Source: Spirochaetia bacterium
GTDB lineage: Bacteria; Spirochaetota; Spirochaetia; CADAEX01
Assembly (NCBI GenBank): GCA_024402405.1
Contig: JAKSTW010000004.1
Span: forward strand, 6,253 to 70,252
Reading direction: 5' to 3'
Length of the DNA: 64,000 bases
The notes below the pieces were generated by a model, which had not been told where the DNA came from, searched no databases, and was given only the letters and a program-made list of their open reading frames with translations. The translations under genes were made by a program, and so were the position numbers. This document shows positions 11,190 through 17,984 of this stretch, piece by piece; positions within the stretch are counted from its first letter, which is position 1, and every line of letters starts with the position of its first letter.

Positions 11190-12251
11190 ATGACAGACAG
11201 GATGAAAGCTTGCAGAAAGTTGATGGTGGTTTTCTTTTTCCTGATTTTATGTGTCGCATCTTATTCCCAGGAAAATAAAACATCGGAGAATATGAAGAAA
11301 ATGGCAGAAAAATTAGGCGATGGAATTTATGCTGAGATGAGCACTGACAGGGGAGTGATCCTTCTGGCTCTGGAATATGAGAAAGTTCCTCTGACAGTCA
11401 TGAACTTTACAGGTCTTGCTGAGGGCAAGATCGATGGCGGTCAGGGAATCGGAACGCCTTTCTATGACGGACTGAAGTTCCACAGGGTCATTGATGAGTT
11501 CATGATCCAGGGTGGTGACCCAAGAGGAAATGGTACTGGCGGACCTGGATACAGTTTTCCTGATGAATTTGATGATTCACTGAAACACACCGGACCTGGA
11601 ATCCTTTCCATGGCCAACAGCGGTCCTGATACAAACGGAAGCCAGTTCTTCATCACACATGTGGAGACACCTTGGCTGGACGGACATCATGCAGTTTTCG
11701 GTCATGTGGTTGAGGGACAGGATGTGGTCAATGCCATCCGCCAGGGCGACAAGATCATTTCTGTGAAGATCATCAGAGTGGGTAAAAAGGCGGAGGAATT
11801 CAAGAATGACAACACCACATTCAAGGCAGAGCTGAAGGCTTATGCTGCAAAGGCTAAGGAAAGAGCTGCCGCAAAGCTTGCTGCTGACGAGAAATTCATT
11901 GAGAAGAAATGGCCTAATGCCATCAAGACCGAATCAGGTCTGAGATATATCGTGCAGAAACCTGGAAAAGGAACTGCATCTCCTAAAATGGGACAGCGTG
12001 TAGTGACACACTATCAGGGAAAACTTCTGGACGGACGTATGTTTGACAGCTCATACCAGAGAGGTCAGGCACTGGAGTTCTGTATCGGACAGGTTATTCC
12101 TGGCTGGAATGAGGCTCTTATGACCATGAAGAAAGGAGAGAAGAGAACTCTTATCATTCCTCCTGAACTTGGTTATGGCGAGAGAGGTGCAGGTGGAGTG
12201 ATTCCTCCTAATGCATATCTTGTATTTGAAGTTGAGCTGCTGGATTTCTGA
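11190..12251 (+). CDS. secreted peptidyl-prolyl cis-trans isomerase, cyclophilin-FKBP fusion
   Basis: 353 aa with signal peptide. N-terminal cyclophilin motifs ([31 protein letters not shown]) and a C-terminal FKBP domain ([13 protein letters not shown]...VIPGWNEAL). Confidence 0.8.
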
Positions 12252-12275
12252 ACCAGAGCTTGAATTTATATTTGA

Positions 12276-12303
12276 GGGCATCCTTATGGGATGCCTTTTT
12301 TTA
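12276..12303 (+). terminator. rho-independent terminator after the PPIase gene
   Basis: GGGCATCC-ttat-GGGATGCC hairpin followed by an 8-nt T-run. Confidence 0.55.
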
Positions 12304-12336
12304 TTGTATGTAATTTTTGTTTCACTAAAACAATAT

Positions 12337-12762
12337 ATGTATGGTATTGTGCCTGTTATAGCTACTATATATATGGTTGCTTTCGAAATTTATATTAAAT
12401 ATAATCATAAAGCTATGTGTAAATTCATTGGTATGGAATATTTTGCAGCTATAGCCATGGTTTCATTAAAAATGGAGGAAATTCCTTTAAAAATGTTAAA
12501 TGGGTATGGTATATCTGTAATGAAATCCTTTAAAGAGAATGATATAGAAGCGATAATTTTGTATTCAGAGAAATATATATCTAAATTAGTACGTGATTAT
12601 TCAGATTGTTTTGAATTGTCTAATGATGGAAAGTCTTTGAGAAAAATAGTTGATGATGATGTTCTTATTGAAAAGTTTTGGGCATATTTGTCTACTGATT
12701 TAATTCTTGCAATGATGAATACATTTAATAAGCAGCATAAAGTTATTAATGAAACCATTTAA
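12337..12762 (+). CDS. hypothetical small protein with hydrophobic N-terminus; first gene of the island operon
   Basis: The ORF-track start (12211) overlaps the upstream gene and its terminator. First in-frame ATG after the terminator is 12337 (MYGIVPVIATIYMVAFEIY...). Its 3' end overlaps the next gene by 14 nt, which suggests translational coupling. Confidence 0.35.
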   Translation: MYGIVPVIATIYMVAFEIYIKYNHKAMCKFIGMEYFAAIAMVSLKMEEIPLKMLNGYGISVMKSFKENDIEAIILYSEKYISKLVRDYSDCFELSNDGKSLRKIVDDDVLIEKFWAYLSTDLILAMMNTFNKQHKVINETI

Positions 12763-14488
12763 AATAAAAGATCCATTATATGGTTATATTGAAATAAAAG
12801 ATCCTGAAATTTGTGATATAATTAATTCGAGCCAATTTCACAGATTAAAACAAATAATTCAAACAAGCTATACATCTGTTTATCCATCAGCAACACACAA
12901 TAGGTTTATTCATTCTATTGGAGTTTATTATTTAGGTACTCTTGCTATTGAGTCATTAAAGATAGAATTAGAAAAATTAAATTGTTATAAAGAAGAAGAA
13001 TTAAAATCATATTATCAAATTTTTTTATTAGCCTGTTTGCTTCATGATGTGGGGCATTCTCCTTTTTCACATTCTGGAGAAAAATATTATATAAAAAAGA
13101 GAACAGAAAAGGGGATTCCTTGTATTTGGGAAAAACTTTTGGATGAATTAAAAGATGATGAATTTAATATCGATACAAGGGGAGAAATTCAAGGTGCAGA
13201 ACATGAAATAATGAGTTCCTTGTTAGCTATATCTCATTATCAAGAAATATTAAAAAAATATGATAAATCATTTTTTGTTAGGTGCATTATTGGTTTGAAA
13301 TATTCAAAAAATGATATTCGTAATTGTTTTATAGAACTGTTAAATTCAAATACAATTGATGTTGATAAATTGGATTATTTGCTTAGAGATAGTTTATATA
13401 CTGGATTTGCAACAGTTTCTATTGATTATAAGAGATTATTATCTTCTGTATGTATTATAACAGATAGAAATAATAAACCTAGTTTAGGTTTTACTAAAGC
13501 AGCATTAAGTACCCTTGAAAGTGTAATTTTAGCTCGCGATATGGAAAAGAAATGGATTCAAAATCATCCAGTAATTAAATATGAATCATTTCTTATTGAT
13601 CACATGATTTCAGCAGTAAATAAATATTATTCAGACTTGGGTATTGAAATTTTTAGCCTTGAAGCCCTAACTCCAGATGGAATTGCTTGTACGACAGGAA
13701 AATTTAAGACAAACAAATTGTCTGATACAGATATTGAAGTTATCAAGAAATGTAAACAAAATGAGCCATTAACTGAGACTGAAAAGATTGCTGAAAATAA
13801 TATTTTAAAAGAAATCATTGATGAAGAATGTTCAATTAAACTTTTATCTGATACAGATATAATAACAATTGCTAAAAACTGTATAAAAGACGATGAATGT
13901 GTAAAAGAATATTTTGATAGAAGCATACGAAAAAAAGCTTTATGGAAATCAGAAGCAGAGTATCTATTATACTTTAAATGTGGCATTATGAGTGAAAAAA
14001 CATTAGCTCAACTACAAGAAAAATTGTTTTCTATAGAAAATGAATTTAACACATTACAAAGTCCATTTATTAATAATAATTTGTTAGAGTATTTTAAAAA
14101 GGAATTGGAAAAAAATAATAAGCTTGTTTTTCTTAGGGAAGATGAAAAAAAGAAACGGGCTGACGAAATTAATAAAAAAATTCAATTAATACAATTTTTA
14201 AAAGAATACTCGAGGGATTGTAATGTTGATTTTAATTTTGCAATTATTTCTAGTGGGCAATTTAATACAGGATTTACCGAGATTGAATTTAAAAATATCC
14301 AAATTCGATTTGATGATGAACATATTGAACCACTTGAAAAAGTTGTACAATTGCTTGATTCAGAAAAGAAAAAGAATAAGTTCTTTTATTTATATGTAAA
14401 TTGTGCTGATATAAAAGGTAATAAAATTGACTTGAATAATTTTTTGACTGAGTTAAATGATTTTTGTGTGAGAAATCTGCTAGATTAA
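12749..14488 (+). CDS. SAMHD1/dGTPase-family HD-domain dNTP triphosphohydrolase with a roughly 300-aa C-terminal extension
   Basis: Motifs NRFIHSIGV, LLHDVGHSPFSH and DVDKLDYLLRD match the Dgt/SAMHD1 signature. C-terminal half is K/E-rich with an internal repeat (LSDTDIEVIKKCK / LSDTDIITIAKNCIK). Confidence 0.7.
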   Translation: MKPFKIKDPLYGYIEIKDPEICDIINSSQFHRLKQIIQTSYTSVYPSATHNRFIHSIGVYYLGTLAIESLKIELEKLNCYKEEELKSYYQIFLLACLLHDVGHSPFSHSGEKYYIKKRTEKGIPCIWEKLLDELKDDEFNIDTRGEIQGAEHEIMSSLLAISHYQEILKKYDKSFFVRCIIGLKYSKNDIRNCFIELLNSNTIDVDKLDYLLRDSLYTGFATVSIDYKRLLSSVCIITDRNNKPSLGFTKAALSTLESVILARDMEKKWIQNHPVIKYESFLIDHMISAVNKYYSDLGIEIFSLEALTPDGIACTTGKFKTNKLSDTDIEVIKKCKQNEPLTETEKIAENNILKEIIDEECSIKLLSDTDIITIAKNCIKDDECVKEYFDRSIRKKALWKSEAEYLLYFKCGIMSEKTLAQLQEKLFSIENEFNTLQSPFINNNLLEYFKKELEKNNKLVFLREDEKKKRADEINKKIQLIQFLKEYSRDCNVDFNFAIISSGQFNTGFTEIEFKNIQIRFDDEHIEPLEKVVQLLDSEKKKNKFFYLYVNCADIKGNKIDLNNFLTELNDFCVRNLLD

Positions 14489-14511
14489 ATTGGATTCAAT
14501 AGGGAGAAATT

Positions 14512-15234
14512 ATGCCAGCTGATATGAGACAATTGATAAATTGCCTTTCTGAAATGAAAAAAATATATCTGAATAATCCAACGGAAGCAGTGCGTGGGTC
14601 TAGTTTTATTTATAAATTGCATGAATATTGTGTAATGCAATTATATTCTGCAATAGATAATGCAAAAGATAAAGTGCAAATGATAAGGTTAAAAGATATG
14701 GCACAGCCTAGTGGTAAGCCACATTATCCTAGAACTTTAATTGAGCCTAATAAATATCAGCTTTTGCAGGAAGTAACATTATTTGGATCACATAAGAATA
14801 AGGATGAGGATATAGCTTTAATTCATTATGCAAATGGTCCTCAAATTGCTATTGGAATTAGAAGTCAGATGTCCTCTGTTGGAAAAAATATTGAGAATTA
14901 CTATGAGGGTATTATTGGTGAATGTATTTCACTCCATGATCGGTTTCCAATGGCAACTCTTGGATATGTCTATTTGTTGCCTAAAAATCCAATCAAACCT
15001 GGCCTGGCAGAAGAAATAGATTTAGTTCGAGCAGAAACACTGTTCAAAAAAATAATTGGTAGATTGGATTGGCATTCACCTAATGATAAATATGAACATT
15101 TTGCTTTCTTAAAAGTTGATTTTAAGCAAGATCCTCCTGCAATTATCCCTTCTGACCCAGCACTTAGTATTGAGACTTTTTTTGACCGGCTTATTGCAAC
15201 CCATAATGACAGAAATTTATATAATCAGCTTTGA
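14512..15234 (+). CDS. hypothetical protein (240 aa), third gene of the island operon; possible nuclease or effector
   Basis: Begins 23 nt after the HD gene. No recognisable motif. AT-rich codon usage matches the island. Confidence 0.4.
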   Translation: MPADMRQLINCLSEMKKIYLNNPTEAVRGSSFIYKLHEYCVMQLYSAIDNAKDKVQMIRLKDMAQPSGKPHYPRTLIEPNKYQLLQEVTLFGSHKNKDEDIALIHYANGPQIAIGIRSQMSSVGKNIENYYEGIIGECISLHDRFPMATLGYVYLLPKNPIKPGLAEEIDLVRAETLFKKIIGRLDWHSPNDKYEHFAFLKVDFKQDPPAIIPSDPALSIETFFDRLIATHNDRNLYNQL

Positions 15235-15242
15235 CAGAGTAA

Positions 15243-16853
15243 TTATAATATTTTCCGTCTTCTTTTGGGAATGCGCCAATTCCTTAGATTCTCAATTGAA
15301 TTTCTTATCTTGTCGATATTTTCATCTGATAAACCATATATTTCTTGCAGAACTATTTTATCACCTAATTTATAAGTAGCATCTATCCCATTTTCCAATA
15401 AACATTGATTAAGTTGATTATAAACCTTGGCAATTATATTATTTGGAATATCTTTTAATATTTTAATTTTGTCAATTTCTCCAGGAATTAAAACAAGGGT
15501 ACCTCCACCTAAAGAATGTACTAGTGTTTCAATTTGTAATAATGTTAAACTATTATACCATCTACAAATAATATTTTCTTTTGATATGCTATTATCTGTA
15601 ATAATTCCACTGAGCAGACTATTTGATACTAAAAATTTTGCTGAATTGCTTATGAGCCTGGGGATGTCTCCAAATACAGTTAATATTAAATCTGGTATTT
15701 CGATATTAGGGGTTATATACCATGGTGAACGTGAATTACATTTATATCCCTTATTAATTTCCATTTTTTCACCCTCTTTAATATATTGTTTCGTTCCTTC
15801 AGTCAGTAGCCTTGGATAAAAAAGAAAACTTTGGGGAATTATATTGGCGTTATCTACACCAATATGTGGATAAGAATTTATTTCCTTTGAATTTAATATG
15901 CTTGGAAGTAAATTTTGCGAAGAAATTTTATATTCTTGAATGGTTGTTATTGTAGGATGAAAATATTTTTTATTTCCACATACATAACCAATTTTAAATT
16001 TACATTCATTTTTTAATAAGTGGATTTCTTGATTGTTCTCTAAGCCTTGTATTAAATTTTGTGTATCTTCTGATAAGATTTTCTGTTCGAAAGGTTTTTC
16101 CATTTTTAATATCTCTGTTATTTTAATTGAAGCACTAATCATAGAAATATTATTGAACAAATCGCTGATATTGTTATAAATATTATAGTTAACAGAATTG
16201 CATTTTGCTCCTTTCTTATCTGCAAGAAATATTATTGTTTCTACATCAACTTCTGGAAAAAAATCATCATATAGCCGACAGATTGTTAATGATCCAAAAT
16301 TAACAGACAAATATTGCCAAAGGGGGAATGCATATCTTACATATGTCATTTCATAAGGCAAAACAAAGCCAAGTTTGCCATTTGTAGCTAACATCTCGCT
16401 TGCATGAACTACAAAAGGCATCCACAGGCTACCATTGCATGGGATATGGAGTTTATATTTTTTCATTATATTAAATATTTTTTTTTGATTATCATTGGTA
16501 AGATTTTTTAAACTTATGTATGGGGGATTTCCTATTATTGCATTTGGTTTTTTTTCTGGCCAGAAATCCAGATAATCAGAAAGGATGCCATGAATAATAT
16601 TATTTTTTGCCAAATATGAATTATATGGCTCAGATTGTAATTCAATACCTAATATTTGAGGGGAGGTGTTTCCAAAATTATTATAATATTTTATGGAGGC
16701 ATTAAGAAAACTACCGTCGCCAAATGATGGTTCTAATAATAATTCATTGCCAGTTTTTATTGCCCATCTTGCAATGTAATCAGCAATAGAAGAACATGTA
16801 TAAAAAGAGCCAGTTGCTTTTTTTGTTGATAGATTATTTTTTTTCATGCTCAT
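15243..16853 (-). CDS. N6-adenine DNA methyltransferase, gamma class (Type II/IIG-like) with C-terminal target-recognition region
   Basis: 536 aa. Motif X GSFYTC, motif I LEPSFGDGSFL, motif IV NPPY (IIGNPPYIS). Confidence 0.75.
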   Translation of the reverse strand: MSMKKNNLSTKKATGSFYTCSSIADYIARWAIKTGNELLLEPSFGDGSFLNASIKYYNNFGNTSPQILGIELQSEPYNSYLAKNNIIHGILSDYLDFWPEKKPNAIIGNPPYISLKNLTNDNQKKIFNIMKKYKLHIPCNGSLWMPFVVHASEMLATNGKLGFVLPYEMTYVRYAFPLWQYLSVNFGSLTICRLYDDFFPEVDVETIIFLADKKGAKCNSVNYNIYNNISDLFNNISMISASIKITEILKMEKPFEQKILSEDTQNLIQGLENNQEIHLLKNECKFKIGYVCGNKKYFHPTITTIQEYKISSQNLLPSILNSKEINSYPHIGVDNANIIPQSFLFYPRLLTEGTKQYIKEGEKMEINKGYKCNSRSPWYITPNIEIPDLILTVFGDIPRLISNSAKFLVSNSLLSGIITDNSISKENIICRWYNSLTLLQIETLVHSLGGGTLVLIPGEIDKIKILKDIPNNIIAKVYNQLNQCLLENGIDATYKLGDKIVLQEIYGLSDENIDKIRNSIENLRNWRIPKRRRKIL

Positions 16854-17178
16854 TATCTCGCTTTATATTGGTAGAAATAAAGACCTCTAAGAGTAATTTT
16901 ATAGTTTCCCTTTGCTCACCAGATAGATCATCGCAATTAATAATTATTCCATTAGCCTTTAAATATGAAGTTTTTATATCTGATAATCCAAGCAGATAAT
17001 CTGATGAAATATTAAAGTATTTGCAGATTAAAATTAAAATTTCTTGATTGGGAAATCGACTGTCAGATTCATATTGGGATATTGTTGCACAAGAAATTCC
17101 CAATATTTTGCCTAAATCAGTTTGCGACAGATTTGCTGTTTTCCTTAGAATTTTTAATCTTTCACCAAATATTTTCAT
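16834..17178 (-). CDS. XRE-family HTH transcriptional regulator (possible R-M controller)
   Basis: 114 aa. HTH QTDLGKILGISCATISQYESDSRFPN. Overlaps the methyltransferase start by 20 nt, so they are co-transcribed. Confidence 0.65.
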   Translation of the reverse strand: MKIFGERLKILRKTANLSQTDLGKILGISCATISQYESDSRFPNQEILILICKYFNISSDYLLGLSDIKTSYLKANGIIINCDDLSGEQRETIKLLLEVFISTNIKRDNEHEKK

Positions 17179-17270
17179 TTTAAATAAGAATAATACATAA
17201 TTTAACGAAATGCAATATTAATTTTGCATAATGAAAATAGATATGATTATTTGTTAACGACAAATATAAT

Positions 17271-17984
17271 TTAACTGTTAAATGTTTTTCTTGCCTCATG
17301 CATCCATTTTATCAGCATTATGACTGAGTTCATCAGATATATGCACCACATTATGAGGATTGCCGGGCTGCCTGTTCCATGCAGGCAGGAGATCGTCCAC
17401 ATTATGATTGACACTGTGTTTACCATCAGCCAGAGGATCCATGTCTGGGCATATCTTTTTATGGTGACGATCATGGCAATTATGCTGACCGCATTGGTGA
17501 ATGAATCAAGCAGCGGGAGCTTTCCTCCCAAGTATCTCAGCCAGAATGCATAAGACGCTGTTGCTGCTGCCACGGTAATGCCCAGCAGTGCGGTCTGCCT
17601 GCGGTTCATGCTCTTTTTTTTCACCTCATGAGTGCCCTGATCCATGTTCCTGCTCCAGACATATATTCCGTAGAATTCCATTGGGACAAAATACAGCAGG
17701 TTCAGCATCACTTCTCCATAGAAACAGGCTTTCAGGGCAATGAGTGCATACAGTACACGGCCTGTTCCTCCGATGATGTATGCGCTGAGCTTTCCCTTGC
17801 CTGTGAGCACGCTGGCGGAAATACCGCATATTGCAGCTGTTATGGCTGTCAGACTGTCTTTGTATAAACTGGCTATGATACCGACTGCTGTGGATGTGAG
17901 CAGGAGCCACAGTATCTCCCATCTGTGCCATCCGAGAAATTCATTCTTTATTATGTCATAAATTCTGCTGCTGGAATGCCTCAT
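17271..17984 (-). CDS. pnuC: nicotinamide riboside transporter PnuC family
   Basis: 237 aa, about 7 TM, N-terminal WHRWEILWLL-type region typical of PnuC. Confidence 0.7.
   Translation of the reverse strand: MRHSSSRIYDIIKNEFLGWHRWEILWLLLTSTAVGIIASLYKDSLTAITAAICGISASVLTGKGKLSAYIIGGTGRVLYALIALKACFYGEVMLNLLYFVPMEFYGIYVWSRNMDQGTHEVKKKSMNRRQTALLGITVAAATASYAFWLRYLGGKLPLLDSFTNAVSIIAMIVTIKRYAQTWILWLMVNTVSIIMWTISCLHGTGSPAILIMWCIYLMNSVIMLIKWMHEARKTFNS

Follow-up and report, generated by a model that had tools for sequence, protein, structure and literature searches.

A stretch of low GC content at positions 12300-17270 of a 64,000-nucleotide segment of contig JAKSTW010000004.1 from a Spirochaetia bacterium (hereafter the window, to which all coordinates refer) is best explained as a composite of two independent, horizontally acquired gene modules, a reading to which we give a probability of roughly 70%. 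The first (module A, 12415-14488) is a small gene paired with a long gene for a phosphohydrolase of the HD superfamily, predicted to act on deoxynucleoside triphosphates (dNTPs), and the second (module B, 14512-17178) is a candidate type II restriction-modification (R-M) system in which a protein of 240 amino acids (aa) would be the restriction enzyme. The modular layout itself, that is, two unrelated modules that happen to abut, we hold to be very probable. The island contains five genes:

12415-12762, plus strand: small partner gene, 115 aa (start set by homologue alignments; AlphaFold2 (AF2) model; pairing with the HD gene)
12749-14488, plus strand: 579-aa HD phosphohydrolase of the SAMHD1/EF1143 type, a predicted dNTP triphosphohydrolase (Pfam HD; matches in the Protein Data Bank (PDB); invariant motifs)
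14512-15234, plus strand: candidate type II restriction endonuclease (R), 240 aa (PADLOC REase_II model PDLC03558; synteny with the methyltransferase gene)
15243-16853, minus strand: gamma-class N6-adenine DNA methyltransferase (M), Eco57I/TaqI-like, 536 aa (Pfam, PADLOC MTase_II)
16834-17178, minus strand: helix-turn-helix (HTH) regulator of the XRE family, 114 aa (Pfam HTH_3, E = 2.6e-13)

The division into two modules follows the company that these genes keep elsewhere. An alignment of the HD family was used to fetch 79 loci from GTDB species representatives and 21 from IMG/VR, and a set of 119 fetched loci was searched with hidden Markov models (HMMs) of the small protein, of the N-terminal and C-terminal parts of the HD protein, and of R and M. 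Linkage of the small gene was counted in non-redundant loci, 40 of them with a strong match to the HD C-terminal part (37 with enough flanking sequence) and 13 more divergent. In every one of the 37, and also in 9 of the 13 divergent loci, the small gene directly neighbours the HD gene and has the same orientation; it stands 5' of the HD gene in 42 loci and 3' of it in 4 (the L010-type loci, L020 and L021). At loci L001-L009, where identity of the HD proteins is 44-61%, a gene of 100-110 aa overlaps the HD start in every case, and its product is 44-63% identical to that of the window's upstream open reading frame. Among 53 generic, shorter SAMHD1-like loci, the sole match to the small protein was at L046, where the HD gene is cut by the contig end. 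What comes after the HD gene differs by context (a 334-aa protein of unknown function, an opposite-strand DUF3606 gene, a formyltransferase, a 180-aa protein of unknown function), and a third conserved gene was absent from a census of 150 proteins flanking the pair. The small gene and the long HD gene (530-580 aa) are a conserved, translationally coupled two-gene unit.

The first-pass annotation had instead joined the small protein, the dNTPase and the 240-aa protein in one three-gene defence operon tied to the methyltransferase and XRE genes. Its spacing figures were accurate: the first two genes overlap by 14 nucleotides (nt) at 12749-12762, and 23 nt separate the HD gene from the 240-aa gene (14489-14511). 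This tight spacing on one strand speaks for an operon, as do the lack of any terminator-like site between the HD and 240-aa genes in our scan and the same foreign GC content of all five island genes. However, when co-occurrence was examined, the 240-aa gene accompanied the HD pair at none of the other 53 non-redundant HD loci; indeed, no homologue of either the 240-aa protein or the methyltransferase was found at any of these full-length HD loci from elsewhere, and conversely an HD gene was present at none of the six loci with a 240-aa homologue (L014-L019). The 240-aa homologues are accompanied in all cases by an orthologous methyltransferase and in none by an HD gene; the protein itself matches a restriction-enzyme model, and a separate Shine-Dalgarno sequence (AGGGAG) precedes the ATG of its gene by 5 nt. 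The co-occurrence test has thus largely refuted the three-gene operon, which we now consider hardly credible: the coupling of the small gene to the HD gene stands, and the membership of the third gene does not. The 240-aa gene may nevertheless be co-transcribed by read-through from the HD operon in this genome, because there is no terminator-like site in the 23-nt gap, but its place behind the HD gene is a local insertion accident, a linkage conserved nowhere else. The HD module and the R-M system are merely juxtaposed, and therefore a dNTPase set between two unknown proteins and facing a methyltransferase/XRE module, once proposed as an undescribed architecture, is not a new one; it is an R-M system beside a two-gene HD module.

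The composition of the sibling R-M loci tells the same story from the other side. Three homologues of the 240-aa protein, with 54-69% identity, led to L014-L019. In one chromosomal context (L014-L017), and in a second with serine recombinases adjacent (L018), the homologue is convergent with an Eco57I-type methyltransferase of 530-532 aa; in a third (L019), it lies directly 5' of a 571-aa Eco57I-type methyltransferase on the same strand. The methyltransferases of all six are 47-48% identical to the window enzyme over its full length, and homologues of R and M occur among the fetched loci only in the window and at L014-L019. Because its homologues adjoin an orthologous methyltransferase at six loci that have no HD gene, and because it matches the PADLOC REase_II model PDLC03558 (E = 1.3e-12, residues 112-211), the 240-aa protein, earlier listed as unknown, is on sequence grounds the candidate restriction enzyme of an R-M system whose other parts are the convergent methyltransferase and the XRE gene. 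Its 398 homologues are all unannotated. The presence of an N6-adenine methyltransferase beside an XRE gene, as first annotated, was confirmed: the enzyme has motif I (EPSFGDGSF) and motif IV (GNPPY), the Pfam domains M_Eco57I_C (3e-17), N6_Mtase (1.5e-11) and Eco57I (2e-8), and a full-length match to PADLOC MTase_II PDLC03267 (E = 4.8e-91), and the XRE gene overlaps the start of its gene by 20 nt, so that the two are translationally coupled.

Could the 240-aa protein be something other than a nuclease? It might be an accessory of the methyltransferase, with a specificity, regulatory or anti-restriction function, leaving the methyltransferase effectively an orphan. Sequence and profile searches gave no Pfam, NCBIfam or PDB match, and the family has a conserved D100 and R117-S-Q region that does not allow a clear assignment of a PD-(D/E)XK motif; moreover, the PADLOC match is limited to part of the protein. 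On the other hand, type II restriction enzymes are well known for having no detectable sequence relatives, and the model that was matched, with an E value of 1.3e-12, is derived from REBASE restriction enzymes. The strict pairing with a methyltransferase, in convergent as well as tandem arrangement and with a small regulator alongside, is the classical type II layout. A non-nuclease accessory is, in our judgement, very unlikely.

In an R-M module of this kind, the methyltransferase would shield the host DNA and the endonuclease would cleave unmodified incoming DNA, while the XRE protein, the presumed controller, probably times or limits expression. Type II systems with a controller resemble the module in having separate, convergent R and M genes, an NPPY methyltransferase with an Eco57I-type C-terminal domain, a small HTH regulator, and a palindrome 5' of the regulator gene. 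They differ in that the window's regulator is coupled to M, matches the controller model weakly, and has a ribbon-helix-helix (RHH)-like counterpart in the siblings. The PADLOC Control_protein match has an E value of 8e-5 to 2e-3, weaker than the matches to other HTH models; the NCBIfam RstR model scores 67 bits against a cut-off of 80. The candidate operator is as follows:

17210-17229, minus strand: 20-bp near-palindrome ATGCAAAATTAATATTGCAT, candidate operator (9 of 10 arm positions match; read from the sequence)

It is centred about 41 nt 5' of the XRE start codon. At L014-L018, the slot of the XRE gene just 5' of the methyltransferase gene is taken by a gene for a 63-aa protein (L014:7402-7593 and L018:7385-7576) with a weak match to the RHH model RHH_9 (E = 0.002-0.013), which looks like a non-homologous regulator replacement within one R-M family. 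At L019, a termite-gut metagenome contig, the co-directional sibling R-M genes are adjoined by an EcoRI-type methylase followed by a GmrSD_N/HNH protein (L019:1879-3995), an apparent second restriction module that makes the region look like a small defence cluster.

When the host DNA of the window was examined for avoided palindromes, no adenine-containing candidate for the recognition site emerged. In the host DNA outside 12300-17270, GGCC was found 100 times against 185 expected under a maximal-order Markov model (z = -6.2), and CTAG and TTAA were also under-represented in the window's host DNA. GGCC is ruled out as the recognition sequence of the adenine methyltransferase in the island, and its scarcity may come from a HaeIII-like (GGCC) restriction system elsewhere in the genome.

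How did the two modules come to lie here? The island has a GC content of 27.9%, compared to 44.2% for the rest of the window, and is the 5-kb stretch of lowest GC content in it; in a sliding window, values run from 0.23 to 0.35 across approximately 12250-17250 and from 0.42 to 0.53 in both flanks. At third codon positions, the five island genes have a GC content of 0.15-0.22, compared to 0.46 for the peptidyl-prolyl isomerase (PPIase) gene on the left and 0.57 for the pnuC gene on the right. An AT-rich island of about 5 kb, lying between a terminator and pnuC, had been described in the first-pass annotation and is borne out by all of these measures; the contrast of 30-37% with about 50% GC given there had the right direction and the wrong figures. 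The edges are marked by these features:

11190-12251, left neighbour of the island: PPIase with cyclophilin and FKBP domains (domain matches)
12274-12298, plus strand: intrinsic-terminator-like hairpin of the PPIase gene, with an 11-bp stem containing 5 G-C pairs, then a T run TTTTTATT
17271-17984, minus strand: pnuC (Pfam NMN_transporter, E = 1e-38)

The hairpin sits directly 3' of the PPIase stop codon and forms the left edge of the island, from which the GC content drops; the right edge is the pnuC stop codon at 17271. No target-site duplication, flanking direct repeats or terminal inverted repeats were detected around the island, and no empty PPIase-PnuC site was found, the PPIase gene being present only in the record of the source assembly. 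The view that the region is a horizontally acquired, defence-type island is supported.

The HD protein has more than 2000 homologues of 530-580 aa. Its closest solved relatives are a Bacteroides phosphohydrolase (2q14), Enterococcus faecalis EF1143 (2o6i), a fungal SAMHD1 (9mr6; PMC12042053) and human SAMHD1, with E values in the PDB of 1e-22 from the single sequence and of 1e-24 to 1e-31 from the family profile. In a 14-sequence alignment of the family, the metal-binding quartet (H55, H99-D100 and D204/D206) is invariant and aligns with SAMHD1, EF1143 and 2q14, and H103, H108, H152-E153, Y210 and R213-D214 are likewise invariant. The motifs HNRFxHS, HDxGHxPFSH, the HE dyad and DxDKxDYxxRD (DxDKLDYLxRD in the family) all align with the solved relatives; the 579-aa protein contains RFIHSIGV, HDVGHSPFSH and DVDKLDYLLRD, just as originally annotated, and the HE dyad lies in the sequence (P)HEIMS. 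From the alignment and the residue numbering of SAMHD1, we take the corresponding family residues to be the counterparts of SAMHD1 H210, H215, H233-E234, Y315 and D319. The N-terminal segment that contributes to allosteric site 1 in SAMHD1 is also recognisable, as DPxxGYI...IIDxxxFxRLR.

Dgt-type dGTPases, on the other hand, are matched poorly. The NCBIfam dGTPase models, including the anti-phage one, align with residues 22-134 only and score 19-46 bits against cut-offs of 152-439 (TIGR01353, 46.2 bits against 152; NF041026, 29.5 bits against 400), and the PADLOC dGTPase model covers residues 24-113 only (E = 4e-10). By its sequence, the protein is of the SAMHD1/EF1143 type and not the Dgt type, which upholds the view that it is no housekeeping Dgt. 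Its C-terminal region of about 260 aa is specific to the subfamily, with conserved motifs LLSDxD, RxxRxxxWKxExE, FNSGF and FFY, and has no Pfam relative and no PDB relative by sequence or profile search. PDB searches with this region, with the small-protein family and with the 240-aa family returned nothing significant, a match to eS17 at E = 0.02 being judged due to chance.

The HD gene of the window also contains a 17-nt direct repeat (16 of 17 positions identical) at 13718-13734 and 13844-13860, which encodes LSDTDI twice. The two copies flank an insertion of about 48 aa (residues ~318-365) that is common to a few relatives (P0003, P0011) and missing from most members of the family. It seems that the protein was partly duplicated internally around the conserved LLSDxD motif.

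The small gene starts at 12415, since all homologues begin at the position of MCKFIGMEY. Its true product, 115 aa long with an isoelectric point (pI) of 5.1 (family median, 4.9), is soluble and acidic, and so the "small hydrophobic protein" first assigned to this position has to be abandoned; the hydrophobic stretch upstream is not conserved and lies partly over the terminator. An exhaustive search of 1.84 billion cluster representatives recovered 59 relatives, nearly all of them stand-alone proteins of 90-170 aa. With these representatives in the alignment, AF2 gave a confident model (mean predicted local distance difference test (pLDDT) 95.7; predicted template modelling score (pTM) 0.87), for which they were needed: AlphaFold on the single sequence reached a pLDDT of 45. 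The modelled fold is winged-helix-like and without a close relative, and would be compatible with either DNA or protein as the binding partner. No match to the small protein was found in Pfam, PADLOC, NCBIfam or PHROGs, nor in the PDB by sequence or profile; one gut myovirus protein has its fold.

Several other ideas about the small protein were tried and rejected. An N-terminal-nucleophile enzyme, suggested by the conserved Met-Cys, is contradicted by several members that have S, H, Y, T, A, D or I in place of Cys2, and the protein is also too short for it. A minimal CloB-like nucleotidyltransferase was ruled out by the fold and the lack of any motif, and hhalign found no copy of the small domain inside the HD C-terminal region. 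Fusion of the small domain to an HD protein was seen in none of 120 HD homologues. Two relatives of 249-252 aa (P0274 and P0283) begin with the small winged-helix-like domain and continue in a conserved C-terminal part of about 130 aa that has no Pfam match. The 117-nt leader 5' of the small gene contains a weak candidate for an operator:

12317-12333, plus strand: inverted repeat TTGTTT-CACTA-AAACAA, possible operator (read from the sequence; such repeats are common in AT-rich DNA)

The pair has a patchy distribution over at least seven phyla. Its hosts include Lachnospiraceae and other Clostridia, Bacteroides, Treponema, Fusobacterium, Adlercreutzia, Saccharibacteria and a Verrucomicrobia metagenome-assembled genome, and it is also found on four IMG/VR viral contigs. 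One 143.8-kb IMG/VR contig (3300029305_011225; L100, L101) has HD-family matches with identical match statistics at both ends, which would fit a phage genome that bears the pair and is terminally redundant or circularly permuted. Collections of cultured phages and plasmids gave generic N-terminal HD matches only. Genes near the pair elsewhere encode IetAS-like AAA and S8 protease proteins, PDC-S01, HipA, a KAP NTPase, AAA_15/21 proteins, RmrA and integrases. At three loci (L003:6049-9315, L005:6363-8926 and L006:5686-8952), an AAA ATPase and subtilase (Peptidase_S8) pair about 2.7 kb from the HD pair matches PADLOC IetS (E = 4.7e-258), which identifies an IetAS-type defence system. The HD pair itself is absent from PADLOC 2.0, Pfam and NCBIfam and was not found in the literature searched, in a priority check that is incomplete; apparently, it has not been described before.

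What would such a pair do? We suggest that the HD protein hydrolyses dNTPs and that the small protein is a binding partner that determines how active it is, whether as an inhibitor or antitoxin, as a sensor, or as an autoregulator of the operon. The pair could then starve phage DNA replication of dNTPs, in a regulated nucleotide-depletion defence whose logic would be analogous to that of Clover or of a toxin-antitoxin module. What the data show for module A is the pairing itself, the full set of SAMHD1-type catalytic residues, the fold of the small partner, and a distribution that is patchy and looks mobile. In our estimate, the chances that the pair has a defence role are about even. More tentatively, the small protein and the long SAMHD1-type HD protein might form an undescribed two-component system against phages (or other mobile elements), in which the small protein would be a protein-level switch, an inhibitor or sensor, that releases SAMHD1-like dNTP depletion upon infection; under the same tentative proposal, anaerobes of the gut, rumen and mouth (Lachnospiraceae, Bacteroides, Treponema, Fusobacterium, Saccharibacteria and others) would widely possess the system, as would some of their phages.

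Several points count against this picture of the two modules. That the HD protein is an active dNTPase, that it is toxic, that the pair protects from phage, and that its two proteins physically interact is inferred in each case. Many neighbours of the pair are glycosyltransferases, acetyltransferases and housekeeping genes, so that the defence context is moderate, and an acidic protein with a winged-helix fold fits DNA binding and protein binding alike. As for the R-M module, R was assigned from one HMM match (residues 112-211) and synteny, with neither a nuclease fold nor a catalytic motif confirmed, and the XRE protein, besides its weak resemblance to R-M controllers, precedes M and not R, which is not the textbook order for a controller protein.

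The HD pair might also have no part in immunity at all, and be an accessory enzyme of nucleotide metabolism or signalling, acting on the dNTP pool or on another nucleotide under the control of a small winged-helix transcription factor. Lone genes for SAMHD1-type HD proteins, seemingly with housekeeping roles, are widespread (the loci L057-L098, with a match to the N-terminal part only), winged-helix-like folds are typical of transcription factors, a short inverted repeat lies 5' of the operon, and several of the loci are situated amid polysaccharide or biosynthetic genes (L007, L010). However, a housekeeping role accords poorly with the patchy spread, with the foreign GC content in the window, with the presence of the pair on viral contigs, and with the defence, toxin-antitoxin or mobile genes that are often nearby. 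The acidity of the family is unusual for a DNA-binding winged helix, and the strict one-to-one coupling, the overlapping frames and the occasional inversion of gene order are more readily understood for a protein complex than for a regulator and the gene it controls. On balance, an enzyme unconnected to immunity seems unlikely.

Alternatively, the pair could be an addiction module that stabilises mobile DNA, with the HD protein as toxin, the small acidic protein as labile antitoxin, and no dedicated anti-phage role. The layout, in which a small acidic gene lies 5' of a larger enzyme gene and overlaps it, is like that of type II toxin-antitoxin systems, a likeness that is confined to gene layout; mobile contexts and toxin-antitoxin genes nearby (HipA in L001) point in the same direction, and winged-helix antitoxins exist, AbiEi being one example. 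However, the small gene is 3' of the HD gene in four loci. Addiction also overlaps with the nucleotide-depletion defence proposed here, since addiction and defence by abortive infection are not mutually exclusive. As a complete account of the pair, addiction by itself strikes us as quite unlikely.

Among known systems, the nearest parallel to a defensive HD pair would be Clover, in which the Dgt-type dGTPase CloA is restrained by a nucleotide made by CloB, a Pol-beta nucleotidyltransferase that produces p3diT (PMC12265719). Both are two-gene units of an HD-superfamily dNTP triphosphohydrolase and a dedicated accessory gene, and the HD pair may, by analogy, share the principle of a cell-endangering effector restrained by its partner. 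The differences are in the proteins: CloA is of the Dgt type, whereas the window protein is of the SAMHD1/EF1143 type; the partner in the window is a 115-aa winged-helix-like protein without the signature of a nucleotidyltransferase, such as a [D/E]h[D/E] active site, or of any other enzyme; and the HD pair is known here from sequence and predicted fold alone. The pair is a candidate defence by nucleotide depletion that has an accessory regulator, and its protein families are not those of Clover.

The remaining comparisons are with HD proteins that act singly. The stand-alone anti-phage dGTPase of Tal et al. 2022 (NCBIfam NF041026; PADLOC dGTPase) reportedly belongs to the systems for which phage defence by dNTP depletion has been proposed or shown. 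The window protein matches this group over about 90 N-terminal residues only and has the distinct C-terminal region of 260 aa. The octameric Vdg, also of the HD superfamily, is another protein for which phage defence by dNTP depletion has been proposed or shown (PMC13519002). Both of these are single-gene systems of the Dgt clade, whereas the window HD protein always comes with a partner gene. SAMHD1, EF1143 and 2q14 (COG1078-type) are closer: all of their metal-binding and catalytic motifs are present and invariant in the HD family, and the allosteric-site-1 segment (DPxxGxI...IIDxxxFQRLR) is recognisable in the HD protein. However, the HD protein is about 100-150 aa longer than the solved bacterial members, its C-terminal region has no detectable relative, and the obligate pairing with a small gene is absent in the generic members.

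The R-M half of the island is routine, and adds a label, that of a candidate restriction-enzyme family, for about 400 "hypothetical" proteins. The HD half is another matter. Until now, nucleotide depletion as a bacterial defence has been linked to dGTPases of the Dgt type, whether on their own or together with the CloB nucleotidyltransferase; in the present pair, the branch of the HD superfamily to which human SAMHD1 belongs is locked to a small partner of an unknown family, across dozens of anaerobes unrelated to each other. If the pair is not a defence system, the strict pairing still defines a regulator-enzyme complex. If it is, it would add a new defence family to the phage biology of the gut microbiome and provide a direct bacterial model of how SAMHD1-type enzymes are restrained and released. 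And if the two proteins do work as a two-component switch, they would be the closest bacterial counterpart of SAMHD1 yet, apart from the Dgt-type defence enzymes.

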